A stretch of DNA of 64,000 nt. Source: Octopus vulgaris. Taxonomy: Eukaryota. Of the stretch, positions 15,007 through 51,890 are shown in pieces. Position 1 is the first letter of the stretch; every line of letters starts with the position of its first letter. The notes below the pieces were generated by a model, which was not told the DNA's origin, did no database searches, and worked only from the letters and a program-made list of their open reading frames with translations. The translations under genes and the position numbers were made by a program. The stretch is taken from the NCBI GenBank assembly GCA_951406725.2, contig OX597822.1, positions 64,790,001 to 64,854,000 on the forward strand. The letters are read 5' to 3'.

Positions 15007-15160
15007 TGGCTGTGTGGTAAGTAGCTTGCTTACGAACCACATGGTTCCGGGTTCAGTCCCACTGCGTGGCACTTTGGGCAAGTGTCTTCTACTATAGCCT
15101 CGGGCCGACCAAAGTCTTGTGAGTGGATTTGGTAGACGGAAACAGAAAGAAGCTCGTCGT
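15007..15160 (+). mobile_element. SINE family A, 5' half (3' half at 18339-18451), split by the 588-bp array
   Basis: Head TGGCTGTGTGGTAAGTAGCTTGC..GAAAGAAGCTCGTCGT then (TA)n; continuation CCCCAACATCGCTTGACAACCGAT at ~18342. Confidence 0.9.
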
Positions 15161-15163
15161 ATA

Positions 15164-15218
<55 letters not shown>

Positions 15219-15468
15219 ATTACACCAAGTAGATTTCGGCATGTAAAAGCCCCATTCGAGGAAAATTTAAGTAATACTAAGTAATTAAGGGTTTAGCAAC
15301 GAAGTGCCTCACCAACACACCGAATTTAGAAATAGCAGTCAAAGAGATATAGCTATTCCTTCTACTAAAAGGGGGGTCTCAGTAAAAACACAGCACTTGA
15401 AAGGCAAACACAGACAGGTAAGAAAGAAAGAATGAAATGACGGCAATCTATCATGCAATTTTAAGTTA

Positions 15469-15560
15469 CCTACGGACGTACGTTTCGAGATCAAGTTTTA
15501 GGATAGCATAAGAATTAGAAAATTCTACTTTACCCAAACTTCTTCTCTCATCGGCGCAGG
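15469..15560 (-). ncRNA. Type I hammerhead ribozyme (unit 1)
   Basis: CCUGCG-CCGAUGA-GAGA..long stem II..UCUC-GAAA-CGUACG-UC-CGUAGG. Confidence 0.8.
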
Positions 15561-16056
15561 ATACCACAATTATGAATAATTGTATATTAAATTTTGAGAT
15601 ACTAGAATGCATCATCTCAACTCAGTGTCAGAGCGAGCCAAAGCATGACCAGTACCACGAAATTCAAAGTTTGAATGAAAGTTTGTGTCACCAGCCCCCT
15701 TCCACCCGCGTGTAGCCAAGACAAAATGCTGCGGTCATTTACTGGGATAAAATATGGTTATCAGTAATAATAAAGGGTGAAATTAATTAATTAGGGATAA
15801 TTATCAATTACACCAAGTAGATTTCGGCATGTAAAAGCCCCATTCGAGGAAAATTTAAGTAATACTAAGTAATTAAGGGTTTAGCAACGAATTGCCTCAC
15901 CAACACACCGAATTTAGAAATAGCAGTCAAAGAGATATAGCTATTCCTTCTACTAAAAGGGGGGTCTCAGTAAAAACACAGCACTTGAAAGGCAAACACA
16001 GACAGGTAAGAAAGAAAGAATGAAATGACGGCAATCTATCATGCAATTTTAAGTTA

Positions 16057-16148
16057 CCTACGGACGTACGTTTCGAGATCAAGTTTTAGGATAGCATAAG
16101 AATTAGAAAATTCTACTTTACCCAAACTTCTTCTCTCATCGGCGCAGG
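16057..16148 (-). ncRNA. Type I hammerhead ribozyme (unit 2)
   Basis: Same motif as unit 1. Confidence 0.8.
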
Positions 16149-16643
16149 ATACCACAATTATGAATAATTGTATATTAAATTTTGAGATACTAGAATGCAT
16201 CATCTCAACTCAGTGTCAGAGCGAGCCAAAGCATGACCAGTACCACGAAATTCAAAGTTTGAATGAAAGTTTGTGTCACCAGCCCCCTTCCACCCGCGTG
16301 TAGCCAAGACAAAATGCTGCGGTCATTTACTGGGATAAAATATGGTTATCAGTAATAATAAAGGGTGAAATTAATTAATTAGGGATAATTATCAATTACA
16401 CCAAGTAGATTTCGGCATGTAAAAGCCCCATTCGAGGAAAATTTAAGTAATACTAAGTAATTAAGGGTTTAGCAACGAATTGCCTCACCAACACACCGAA
16501 TTTAGAAATAGCAGTCAAAGAGATATAGCTATTCCTTCTACTAAAAGGGGGTCTCAGTAAAAACACAGCACTTGAAAGGCAAACACAGACAGGTAAGAAA
16601 GAAAGAATGAAATGACGGCAATCTATCATGCAATTTTAAGTTA

Positions 16644-16735
16644 CCTACGGACGTACGTTTCGAGATCAAGTTTTAGGATAGCATAAGAATTAGAAAATTC
16701 TACTTTACCGAAACTTCTTCTCTCATCGGCGCAGG
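16644..16735 (-). ncRNA. Type I hammerhead ribozyme (unit 3)
   Basis: Same motif, one substitution in stem II. Confidence 0.8.
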
Positions 16736-17230
16736 ATACCACAATTATGAATAATTGTATATTAAATTTCGAGATACTAGAATGCATCATCTCAACTCAG
16801 TGTCAGAGCGAGCCAAAGCATGACCAGTACCACGAAATTCAAAGTTTGAATGAAAGTTTGTGTCACCAGCCCCCTCCCACCCGCGTGTAGCCAAGACAAA
16901 ATGCTGCGGTCATTTACTGGGATAAAATATGGTTATCAGTAATAATAAAGGGTGAAAATAATTAATTAGGGATAATTATCAATTACACCAAGTAGATTTC
17001 GGCATGTAAAAGCCCCATTCGAGGAAAATTTAAGTAATACTAAGTAATTAAGGGTTTAGCAACGAATTGCCTCACCAACACACCGAATTTAGAAATAGCA
17101 GTCAAAGAGATATAGCTATTCCTTCTACTAAAAGGGGGTCTCAGTAAAAACACAGCACTTGAAAGGCAAACACAGACAGGTAAGAAAGAAAGAATGAAAT
17201 GACGGCAATCTATCATGCAATTTTAAGTTA

Positions 17231-17322
17231 CCTACGGACGTACGTTTCGAGATCAAGTTTTAGGATAGCATAAGAATTAGAAAATTCTACTTTACCCAAA
17301 CTTCTTCTCTCATCGGCGCAGG
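17231..17322 (-). ncRNA. Type I hammerhead ribozyme (unit 4)
   Basis: Same motif as unit 1. Confidence 0.8.
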
Positions 17323-17942
17323 ATACCACAATTATGAATAATTGTATATTAAATTTTGAGATACTAGAATGCATCATCTCAACTCAGTGTCAGAGCGAGC
17401 CAAAGCATGACCAGTACCACGAAATTCAAAGTTTGAATGAAAGTTTGTGTCACCAGCCCCCTTCCACCCGCGTGTAGCCAAGACAAAATGCTGCGGTCAT
17501 TTACTGGGATAAAATATGGTTATCAGTAATAATAAATGGTGAAATTAATTAATTTGGAATAATTATCAATTACACCAAGTAGATTTCGGCATGTAAAAGC
17601 CCCATTCGAGGAAAATTTAAGTAATACTAAGTAATTAGGGGTTTAGCAACGAATTGCCTCACCAACACACCGAATTTAGAAATAGCAGTCAAAGAGATAT
17701 AGCTATTCCTTCTACTATTCCTTCACCCTTTATTATTACTGATAACCATATTTTATCCCAGTAAATGACCGCAGCATTTTGTCTTGGCTACACGCGGGTG
17801 GAAGGGGGCTGGTGACACAAACTTTCATTCAAACTTTGAATTTCGTGGTACTGGTCATGCTTTGGCTCGCTCTGACACTGAGTTGAGATGATGCATTCTA
17901 GTATTTCAAAATTTAATATACAATTATTCATAATTGTGGTAT

Positions 17943-18034
17943 CCTGCGCCGATGAGAGAAGAAGTTTGGGTAAAGTAGAATTTTCTAATTCTTATGCTAT
18001 CCTAAAACTTGATCTCGAAACGTACGTCCGTAGG
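17943..18034 (+). ncRNA. Type I hammerhead ribozyme (inverted unit)
   Basis: Stem I CCTGCG 17943-48 / CGTAGG 18029-34; core CCGATGA 17949-55; stem II GAGA/TCTC; GAAA 18017-20; stem III ACGTACGT; GUC cleavage triplet ending 18028. Confidence 0.8.
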
Positions 18035-18228
18035 TAACTTAAAATTGCATGATAGATTGCCGTCATTTCATTCTTTCTTTCTTACCTGTCTGTGTTTGCC
18101 TTTCAAGTGCTGTGTTTTTACTGAGACCCCCTTTTAGTAGAAGGAATAGCTATATCTCTTTGACTGCTATTTCTAAATTCGGTGTTGGTGAGGCAATTCG
18201 TTGCTAAACCCTTAATTACTTAGTATTA

Positions 18229-18328
<100 letters not shown>

Positions 18329-31138: not shown

Positions 31139-31179
31139 GAGTTCAACAAACACAAGTTAATGTGCGGAAAACAATAAGA

Positions 31180-32350
31180 ATTTGGAAAGAAAATTCTATA
31201 AACCTAGTTTTTAAACATCGATTGGAAAAGGGGGTCCACTAGAATAATATAATAACCAAAGAGAACCCCCGTTTTAGATGTATGATTTGGTGTATATTGC
31301 AAGAAACAGCTAGGTTTCTTCGTTTAACATTTTACATAGTTCAACCTGTACAAGCTAATAAAACAGGAATTTTGAAAGAAGTTTCTATAAAACTAGTTTT
31401 TAAACATCGATTGGAAAAGGGGGTCCACTAGAATAATATAATAACCAAAGAGAACCCCCGTTTTAGATGTATGATTTGGTGTATATTGCAAGAAACAGCT
31501 AGGTTTCTTCGTTTAACATTTTACATAGTTCAACCTGTACAAGCTAATAAAACAGGAATTTTGAAAGAAGTTTCTATAAACCTAGTTTTTAAACATCGAT
31601 TGGAAAGGGGGTCCACTAGAATAATATAATAACCAAAGAGAACCCCCGTTTTAGATGTATGATTTGGTGTATATTGCAAGAAACAGCTAGGTTTCTTCGT
31701 TTAACATTTTACATAGTTCAACCTGTACAAGCTAATAAAACAGGAATTTTGAAAGAAGTTTCTATAAACCTAGTTTTTAAACATCGATTGGAAAGGGGGT
31801 CCACTAGAATAATATAATAACCAAAGAGAACCCCCGTTTTAGATGTATGATTTGGTGTATATTGCAAGAAACAGCTAGGTTTCTTCGTTTAACATTTTAC
31901 ATAGTTCAACCTGTACAAGCTAATAAAACAGGAATTTTGAAAGAAGTTTCTATAAACCTAGTTTTTAAACATCGATTGGAAAGGGGGTCCACTAGAATAA
32001 TATAATAACCAAAGAGAACCCCCGTTTTAGATGTATGATTTGGTGTATATTGCAAGAAACAGCTAGGTTTCTTCGTTTAACATTTTACATAGTTCAACCT
32101 GTACAAGCTAATAAAACAGGAATTTTGAAAGAAGTTTCTATAAACCTAGTTTTTAAACATCGATTGGAAAGGGGGTCCACTAGAATAATATAATAACCAA
32201 AGAGAACCCCCGTTTTAGATGTATGATTTGGTGTATATTGCAAGAAACAGCTAGGTTTCTTCGTTTAACATTTTACATAGTTCAACCTGTACAAGCTAAT
32301 AAAACAGGAATTTTGAAAGAAGTTTCTATAAAACTAGTTTTTAAACATCG
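31180..32350. repeat. 188-189-bp tandem repeat, about 6 near-identical units
   Basis: AAACATCGA motif with CATCG at 31216, 31405, 31594, 31782, 31970, 32158, 32346. Confidence 0.95.
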
Positions 32351-32781
32351 AATGTGTCTGCAGGGTCCACCAGAATAAAACAGTAATCAAAGGGGTCCAT
32401 AAATAAAAAAGTAGCTGAGAATCCCATGTCTACATTACCCCCAACTCATAACTCTTGCTCTCTCTCTCTCTCATATTCTTCCTGGTTATTTCATCACAAA
32501 TATGAAATATTTCGACCTCTGATACATTAACCTCTTTGGAATCTCATTTGCCAGATTTCTATTCTATCCTTCTCACCACATTTTCCATTCCATTTCCTTT
32601 GCTCCACTTGTCCTCTTCGTACTCCGGCGTTTCTCTTCTACGTCCGCATCCTGCTGCTAGTACTCTTTTACTCCACCTCGTCTGCTCTAGCATCTATATA
32701 TATATATACCCGCTATACTTTAACTCCGGATTCTGTTTTTTCACATACGACGATCATCACTACTACTACTACTACTACAAT

Positions 32782-50082: not shown

Positions 50083-50549
50083 GACCCAGCGAACTTCCAC
50101 CATGGGTCATCACAATTGCTTAAGGTAAAAATGAATTCCTCGCTCTTTCGGAAACATCAATCTTCTGTATTGACCGCTTTCCACCACTTTGATCTGTTTT
50201 TTGTATTGAATACGTATCGCCACCGTGGGCCACTGCATCGAACACTTTGAACATATACTTCAAACTATATATCAACTATACATGAACTATATATCAACTA
50301 TACATGAACTCTAAGATGTCTGACTCCGTTGTGTATTATAAATGAATTTCTTGTGTTTGACGGCATGAGCTGTCTTTTTTTATATATAACTTTTTTTGAT
50401 AAGGTTCATTTCAGGAACTGAAACATGTTATAATGTATATATAAAAATTAAAAATTGTATAATACAGCAGCATTTTCGAACTTCATTTTTTACAAATATA
50501 TATATATATATATATGTATATAACAGGAAGCTTTACGAGCACATACATA

Positions 50550-50771: not shown

Positions 50772-51890
50772 GATTTCAAATTTTGGCACAAGGCCAACAA
50801 TTTCGGGAGAGGAAGTAAGTCGATTACATCGACCCCAGTGCACAACTGATACTTATTTTATCGACCCTAGAAATGAGGAAAGGCAAAGTCGACCTAGGTA
50901 GAACTTGAACTCAGACGAAGTGCCGTAAAGCTTTTTGCCCGGCGTGCTGCCAGCTCACCGTTTAACTTGATAGCATAATATTCTTTTCTACTCTAGGCAC
51001 AAGGCCCGAAATGTTTGGGGAAGGGGGCCAGTCGAGTATATCGACCCCAGTGCGCAACTGGTACTTAATTTATTGACCCCGAAAGGATGAAAGGCAAAGT
51101 CGACTTCGGTGGAATTTGAACTTAGAACGTAAAGACAGACGAAATACCGCTAAGTATTTTGCCCGGCGGTCTAACGTGTCTTATTTCTTTATTGCCCACA
51201 AGGAGCTAAACATAGCGGGGACAAACAAGGACAAAGGGATTAAGTCGTAAATACTGGGGTCGTAAGTACCAGTTACGACCCCAGTGCGTAACTGGTGCTT
51301 AATTTATCGACCCCGAAAGGATGAAAGGCAAAGTCAACCTCGGTGGAATTTGAACTTAGAACGTAAAGACAGACGAAATACCGCTAAGCATTTCGCCCGG
51401 CGGTCTAACGTTTCTTATTTCTTTATTGCCCACAAGGGGCTAAACATAGAGGGGACAAACAAGGACAGACATAGGGATTAAATCGATGACATCGACCCCA
51501 GTGCATAACTGGTACTTAATTTATTGGCCCTGAATATGAAAGGCAAAGTCGACCTCGGCGGAATTTGAACTAAGAACGTAACGGCAGACAAAATACCTAT
51601 TTCTTTACTAACCACAACGGGGCTAAACACAAAGAGGATAAACAAGGACAGACAAACGGATTAAGTCGATTATATCGACCCCAGTGCGTAACTGGTACTT
51701 AATTTATCGACCCCGAAAGGATGAAAGGCAAAGTCGATCTCGGCGGAATTTGAACTCAGAACGTAACGGCGGACGAAATACGGCTACGCATTTCTCCCGG
51801 CGTGCTAACGCTTCTGCCAGCTCGCCCCCTTTACGAAATGTCGCTAAGCATTTTACTCGGCGTTCTAACGATCCTGCCAGCTTGCCGTTG
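50772..51890 (-). mobile_element. Head-to-tail array of about 5 SINE family F units
   Basis: GACCCCAGTGC..AACTGGTACTTAATTTAT..GAAAGGCAAAGTC..GGAATTTGAAC repeated. Confidence 0.85.

Follow-up and report, generated by a model that had tools for sequence, protein, structure and literature searches.

A 64,000-nucleotide stretch of Octopus vulgaris DNA (contig OX597822.1 of assembly GCA_951406725.2, positions 64,790,001 to 64,854,000; hereafter the window) holds five copies of a type I hammerhead motif with C in place of U at core position 4 (U4C). On balance we read the sequence that carries them as a non-coding, 587-bp non-LTR retrozyme whose U4C hammerhead belongs to a young, repeatedly amplified clade and probably still cleaves itself, at a reduced rate, as a double hammerhead in tandem transcripts. 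The kind of element is itself ordinary. Two features are unusual: helix II measures 61 nt, and the core substitution rides a young expansion and has arisen twice.

The insertion and its repeat unit

The five motifs of the window belong to one insertion, laid out as follows in window coordinates.

15160..15216: left (TA)n target tract
15217..17717, minus strand: main arm, in which a non-coding unit of 587-588 bp is repeated head to tail about 4.25 times; the 3′ end of the arm lies at the left (TA)n tract
15469..15560, minus strand: hammerhead copy, C4 (C3 at 15554)
16057..16148, minus strand: hammerhead copy, C4 (C3 at 16142)
16644..16735, minus strand: hammerhead copy, C4, with one distal helix II substitution (C3 at 16729)
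17231..17322, minus strand: hammerhead copy, C4 (C3 at 17316)
17722..18235, plus strand: inverted arm, 5′-truncated to unit positions 24-540 and meeting the main arm head-to-head
17943..18034, plus strand: type I hammerhead motif, predicted cut between 18028 and 18029
18231..18326: right (TA)n target tract

Both arms end 3′ in (TA)n, the right arm entering its tract at one of two fixed 3′ end sites of the family. A first-pass annotation, made from the sequence alone, had taken the copies to be in tandem. This holds for four of them; the fifth, the very copy it described, lies in the inverted arm.

The unit has one motif per 587-588 bp, a GC content of 37% and no stop-free stretch longer than 67 codons. 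Its RNA folds strongly on the ribozyme strand only (z = -6.2 in sense, -6.3 with the ribozyme removed, +0.3 in antisense). The sense strands of other monomers gave z of -4.7 to -8.4 (6/6) and five controls from the window -1.2 to +1.3; a distant relative gave -5.0 in sense and -2.1 in antisense.

A search of the 2.8-Gb genome gave 192 loci that merged into 125, and we analyzed the 104 that had a scored hammerhead and shared >82% identity with the unit. In these loci 3′ ends concentrate at unit positions 531/540 and 35-53, 5′ ends are scattered, and arms range from 0.5 to 6.3 units. The simple head-to-head, two-arm layout is found at 41 of the 104, and (TA)n is present at the 3′ junctions examined. 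Partial tandems, an inverted 5′ copy, fixed internal 3′ ends and a microsatellite target are together the marks of Penelope-type insertion. We class the element as a non-LTR retrozyme that bears insertion marks of Penelope type.

At one site (L032/L063:1828-2162) a U4 copy is directly adjoined, within one (TA)n tract, by an insertion that resembles the C4 clade and shares 97-100% identity with the window unit, so a single target has been used repeatedly. Elsewhere the window holds a 188-bp tandem repeat (31178-32351; 6.2 copies, 99% identical), in which a scan found no hammerhead layout, and a 234-bp repeat (51042-51467; 1.8 copies, 94% identical).

The hammerhead motif

The plus-strand copy is divided as follows.

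17943..17948, plus strand: helix I 5′ strand, CCUGCG, partner of 18029-18034, with compensatory changes across the family
17949..17955, plus strand: core 5′ box, CCGAUGA, with U4C at 17950
17956..18016, plus strand: helix II, 61 nt (a 4-bp GAGA/UCUC stem, a 2x2 internal loop and a long irregular hairpin)
18017-18019, plus strand: G12-A13-A14 (GAA)
18020-18027, plus strand: palindromic helix III, ACGUACGU
18028, plus strand: C17
18029-18034, plus strand: helix I 3′ strand, CGUAGG, followed by U at 18035

The CCGAUGA box that had been reported for all copies is there: position 4 is C in 5/5 (C3 of the plus-strand copy is at 17949). Over 104 nt four of the five are identical, and the other has a G-to-C change in distal helix II. 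Set against the core CUGANGA ... GAAA ... UH, the window copies mismatch at U4 only and agree at the other letters; U4 relatives match the full consensus. The heptamer CCGAUGA by itself occurs at chance level in the window (20 observed, 20.35 expected). The predicted fold of the helix II region has z = -3.5, with one of 200 shuffles equally good.

The stem II of about 60 nt measures 61 nt, and the stems that the first-pass annotation named within it occur in the predicted fold; its description omitted the proximal 4-bp GAGA/UCUC stem. The palindromic stem III was also correctly placed. It is not, as had been proposed, the minimal stem of Penelope hammerheads, since helix III has 2 bp and a palindromic tetraloop, the ordinary invertebrate type. 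Assignment to the Penelope min-HHR was set aside on this ground and because helix I has 6 bp (CCUGCG/CGUAGG, including one G-U); helix III is absent or minimal and helix I of 4-5 bp in the min-HHRs as described in PMC4209133.

A search against Rfam gave no match at the gathering threshold, and no hammerhead family was among the 20 matches at E<=10; the long helix II probably defeats the Rfam hammerhead models. In 31/31 aligned variants the U after helix I and the A that precedes pair 11.4 do not vary. These two letters would fit the conserved reverse Hoogsteen pair. By analogy with hammerhead structure, the U at 18035 may take part in a loop 1-loop 2 contact.

Position 4 across the genome

The first-pass annotation had proposed that position 4 be tabulated across all genomic copies. 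Patterns made of the 5′ box, 40-70 nt and GAAACGTACGTC matched 381 C4 and 454 U4 sites genome-wide (C4 in 381/835), whereas the reversed control patterns matched 0 and 1; among the first 100 U4 matches listed, one was clearly unrelated. A narrower 19-mer had C at position 4 in 250 cases, U in 67, A in 2 and G in none. The first 100 C4 matches listed alone fall at 56 loci, and C4 copies are dispersed over many chromosomes. These counts refute the possibility, named at first pass, of a dead mutation specific to this locus.

The rest of the core is largely constant. A flank-anchored 5′ box pattern gave 807 matches, with CYGAUGA in 98/100 among those listed, and the 3′ box context occurs in at least 1001 copies, with GAAACGUACGUC in 94/100 among those listed. 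No recurring core change other than that at position 4 was seen among these 100 + 100 flank-anchored matches listed. Contigs from three of four sequencing runs (organisms B, C and D), of unclassified run type, hold both C and T at the letter corresponding to 17950, which is no more than a hint that C4 extends beyond a single assembly.

Descent of the U4C lineages

We built a tree from 149 distinct segments after masking position 4 and excluding segments that carry long TA runs or are cut by locus ends. All non-U4 copies fall on one side of a branch with support of 100/96; some truncated rows of this tree carry long branches. A second, cleaner tree of 37 rows, rooted on relatives of about 70% identity, places the C4 clade within the U4 copies, beside L152. 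Within the ribozyme region, L152 (U4) and L218 (C4, C1 type) differ by just two letters, that at core position 4 and a flanking one.

Five subfamilies make up the C4 clade and form a ladder with steps of 8, 4, 4 and 9 changes. Divergence from the subfamily's own majority is 0.4-0.9% in C4 (four measured, the fifth being a single copy) against 1.0-5.7% in U4, the sample of the window-type subfamily being partly biased to best matches. As the alternative raised at first pass has it, U4C was fixed before amplification, but amplification then ran through five successive subfamilies.

U4C arose once in the lineage of the window and once in a distant one, a single origin being rejected (p-AU 1e-4). 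The second C4 subfamily, with nine copies at six loci (L233, L236, L238-L241), is about 70% identical to the window unit and has the palindrome ACGCGCGU, helix I CCAUG/CAUGG and a helix II base that is mostly A-A. This distant subfamily also has U4 versions. Reversion at CpG was rejected as the source of the bulk of U4 copies, because these make older lineages of their own; it is possible for single copies such as L232.

In one young, amplified U4 subfamily (L153, L140, L227, L228), whose copies are about 1% from the majority, A10.1 faces C11.1, and the conserved base pair of helix II is broken. Type I layouts with a long helix II and a ACGCGCGU helix III gave 269 matches genome-wide (control 0; e.g., L244, L247, L251). 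They split into several dissimilar helix II groups, which are probably further retrozyme families. Relatives with a short helix II and the same palindrome gave four matches, about the chance number, none linked to the unit.

Is the fold being kept?

Across 31 hand-picked variants 92.7% of cells are paired, against at most 42% in slid registers. Changes on both sides were seen in 8/21 pairs, a count inflated by the relatedness of the variants. Helices I, II and III covary across the family, and the switch of palindrome from ACGUACGU to ACGCGCGU altered both arms and kept the palindrome. Position 7 varies as expected.

On one branch after U4C, 461 columns contain four changes, and two of these together convert pair 10.3-11.3, an A-U, into G-C. 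The chance of such a double change is about 0.002 when only ribozyme pairs are counted, and 0.011 with all predicted pairs. The same change of this pair arose in two U4 lineages. Recombination was rejected as its source after U4C, as the intervening markers of the U4 subfamily with the same pair are absent; short conversion tracts are possible, and position 248 also changed in parallel.

Other pairs have been lost. A distal helix II pair is broken in the C4 subfamily with the longest arrays, and amplified subfamilies carry mismatches at the helix II base (A10.1-C11.1; A-A) that may mean relaxed selection. The kept core letters are by themselves weak evidence, since no more than about 40 substitutions in about 500 bases have accumulated across the C4 lineage.

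Predicted folds of single and tandem units

Folds were predicted with nearest-neighbor energies, in which tertiary contacts are not modeled. The active fold makes up 0.1-0.3% of the predicted monomer ensemble in 10 of 11 variants, and less in the distant variant. In the predicted C4 monomer the 5′ box pairs with helix III, and the N4-G16.2 pair has a probability of 0.63 versus 0.09-0.12 in five close U4 variants. The consensus fold of the family holds the same pair, as U-G in 25 variants and C-G in six. A lone unit or circle is thus predicted to bury its core, and C4 to strengthen this off fold by replacing U-G with C-G.

For natural two-unit transcripts (two C4 and one U4), the unconstrained minimum free energy structure was the active double hammerhead in 3/3, lying 12-13 kcal/mol below two monomer hammerheads. 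The idea that tandem copies act as dimers through the palindromic stem III is thereby supported, in silico only.

What was copied

At the cut site, 3 stops fall within 10 nt against 2.9 expected, and 56 of 59 crossings read through, a count in which alignment breaks may have split some diverged arms. The stops number 2/32 in C4 and 1/27 in U4. As 5′ ends do not pile up at the cut site, the template was a re-ligated circle or uncut RNA rather than cut linear RNA. The circle is the simpler reading because canonical U4 copies are read through alike; uncut RNA fits the read-through equally well.

Variants shared within arrays gave a mixed picture. Locus-private variants are present in all units at 14 of 39 loci, and there are 16 partly shared sites over the 39; variants present in only part of the units of an array are not explained by a single circle. 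Among 40 multi-copy loci no array mixes U4 and C4 subfamilies.

Two or more same-strand hammerheads are found at 20/56 C4 loci versus 11/76 U4 loci among the matches listed (Fisher p 0.007). By alignment the excess is weaker: the median longest arm is 765 nt in C4 versus 622 nt in U4, and two or more units are present at 6/40 versus 3/64 loci. Age confounds this difference in array length, and a single evolutionary event underlies it. Contigs of four runs, whose RNA status is a guess, cover parts of the unit, and contigs cannot show ends, strand or circles.

Relation to Penelope-like elements

The genome has at least three intact Penelope-like families that end at (TA)n, with frames of 781-811 codons (781, 784 and 811). 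The unit has no detectable similarity to the UTRs of these 784-, 811- and 781-codon families; its best local alignment with the 784-codon family scores 34, equal to the shuffle maximum of 34. An ORF with reverse transcriptase (RT) plus GIY-YIG is absent from the unit, and no shared coding sequence is attached to its copies. Penelope-like ORFs beside two copies (L145, L054) proved to be neighbors and not parts of the element. The lack of a long ORF and of UTR similarity to the three families points to a non-autonomous retrozyme and not to the pLTR of a coding element. The link to Penelope elements drawn at first pass is an indirect one.

The Penelope-like families have features of their own. 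The 781-codon family (L298, L299; L273-L292) is intact, with many identical endonuclease matches, and its 3′ UTR has a hammerhead-like motif with a U3-A8 swap (UUGAUAA ... GAAACAUGU) and an A/U-rich helix I. A 439-bp fragment of this UTR, 99.5% identical, lies in the window at 50084-50522 (plus strand) and contains a 22-bp tandem at 50263-50310. The 3′ end of the 784-codon family (L210:1288-1325) has a degenerate hammerhead-like motif (UUGAUAA, a GCAU/AUGC stem, GCAA for GAAA and a CCGG palindrome), and a stretch in the 811-codon family (L296, L297) resembles it. Two further open frames near retrozyme copies (L087:2466-3140 and L053:2457-2957, both minus strand) have no Pfam match. By eye, with a CxLC motif, they may correspond to the endonuclease end of a further Penelope-like clade.

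Comparison with known systems

Close parallels are found in metazoan non-LTR retrozymes, as these are described by Cervera and de la Pena (2020, PMC7229834) and Li et al. (bioRxiv 10.64898/2026.07.22.740005). Shared with them are a GC content below 45%, tandem units that are non-coding and carry one type I hammerhead apiece, a helix III of 2 bp plus tetraloop, arrays of more than one unit and co-occurrence with Penelope-like elements. The units described there are about 300 bp, compared with 587 bp here; their helix II has 4 bp and a terminal loop, in contrast to 61 nt with an internal loop; and they form long arrays, whereas the octopus copies are mostly dispersed, short, inverted (TA)n insertions. 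The fixation of U4C in a young clade also sets the octopus unit apart. Circles, and ligation by RtcB, have been shown in other animals (PMC7229834), whereas for the octopus unit a circle is a proposal. For Xenopus retrozyme dimers, the account in bioRxiv 2026.07.22.740005 gives no cleavage in 8/9.

The pLTR hammerheads of Penelope-like elements (Cervera and De la Pena 2014, PMC4209133; Craig et al. 2021, PMC8557442; PMC11167929) share, as these papers describe them, partial tandems with an inverted 5′-truncated copy, microsatellite targets, two internal 3′ end sites, a palindromic helix III suited to dimers and tolerated core variation (in their case U3-A8, in schistosomes). Penelope hammerheads are described as acting as dimers through this helix, with low activity in vitro (PMC4209133). 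Unlike those elements, the unit here has no ORF and has a helix III, which is absent in min-HHRs; and in place of a tail of 30-40 bp there are two 3′ end sites about 100 nt apart. Non-autonomous Chlamys elements such as MRC1, which in the account of PMC8557442 are mobilized by a Penelope-like element, are likewise non-coding, with multicopy head-to-tail insertions. They generally share 3′ sequence with an autonomous family, whereas the octopus unit shares none with the three families compared, and most Chlamys are described as having no canonical hammerhead (PMC8557442), whereas one is present here.

The core substitution has a natural precedent. A viroid hammerhead with the same U4C change is reported to have lower activity in vitro and still to support infection (PMC3088659, citing Ambros and Flores 1998), and hammerheads stabilized by tertiary contacts are reported to tolerate core changes at reduced activity (PMC3884650). 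The viroid case is a variant of an RNA replicon, whereas here U4C is fixed in hundreds of genomic copies, in successive subfamilies and with two origins. Among the mainly open-access papers searched, we found no published description of this family, nor of a mobile-element lineage in which U4C is fixed; Repbase, Dfam or the supplements of papers may list the family.

How the element may spread

The U4C version made nearly half of the copies of the close family, so the ribozyme likely still cuts, at a lower rate, or cutting has become optional. Of the two options raised at first pass, we favor an attenuated but functional natural variant. In the course of events that we propose, two adjacent units would pair through the palindromic helix III into the predicted active double hammerhead, and cleavage, slowed and not stopped by U4C, would release unit-length RNA. 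A host ligase such as RtcB would close it into a circle. The RT-endonuclease of an autonomous Penelope-like element would then nick a (TA)n tract, and the RT, starting at one of the two internal sites, would copy round the circle to give arrays of up to about six units.

The main rival, possible if on the whole unlikely, is that C4 hammerheads are effectively dead in vivo and that cutting has become dispensable. The element would then spread through uncut multimeric transcripts, with arrays made by template jumping of the Penelope RT and the fold kept for RT recognition, for RNA stability or by inertia. An anole Penelope element inserted in vitro without cleavage, hammerhead-dead mutants not impairing insertion and the main substrate being unprocessed RNA, according to PMC11167929, and Naiads are described as proliferating without hammerheads (PMC8557442). 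Several amplified subfamilies here have core or core-adjacent defects, variants are partly shared within arrays, and the excess of same-strand tandem hammerheads at C4 loci would be expected if the RNA were cut less. However, the compensatory change in proximal helix II postdates U4C, and position 4, alone in the core among the matches listed, has changed repeatedly and has a viable natural precedent. Read-through is as complete in U4 as in C4, which is thus not singled out, and the array excess suffers from its confounding with age and its single origin.

Two other readings fare worse. C4 RNAs might be cheats that are cut in trans by U4 transcripts with the same palindrome and helix I. Such exchange is conceivable, because ACGUACGU and CGUAGG are common to U4 and C4 subfamilies of similar copy number, and because the dimer geometry exchanges strands, each copy's core box acting on its partner's cut site. 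But the intramolecular double hammerhead is already the predicted minimum for tandem C4 RNA, U4 and C4 subfamilies do not mix within arrays at the 40 multi-copy loci, and two low-abundance RNAs would seldom pair in vivo; we consider cheating very improbable. We give next to no credence to a dead mutation of one locus multiplied, satellite-like, by local tandem duplication of DNA. It would account for five adjacent, nearly identical copies in the window, but C4 copies sit at dozens of dispersed loci on many chromosomes, and each locus has its own 5′ truncation and inversion point, with the family's fixed 3′ ends at (TA)n.

What the family may tell

In this genome a radiation of long-helix-II hammerheads (>1,100 pattern matches) escapes searches with descriptors and with Rfam. 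The role of the hammerhead in Penelope-like elements and retrozymes is in question, for it is widely conserved and yet dispensable in one in vitro insertion system, as reported in PMC11167929. The octopus family offers natural, near-isogenic sister subfamilies with relative ages and copy numbers, and so makes it directly testable whether cutting is needed, tunable or dispensable.

Finally, we raise as a speculation, and a rather improbable one, that weakening of the ribozyme was selected and not merely tolerated. U4C would then be a dimmer, both blunting the catalytic pocket and holding monomers and circles in the off fold; slower ribozymes would leave longer-lived templates and would out-copy their canonical sisters. 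If so, this would explain the two independent fixations of U4C, the amplified mismatches at the helix II base and the weakened state of the least diverged subfamilies, and the genome would hold a dated natural series of ribozyme speed against retroelement fitness.
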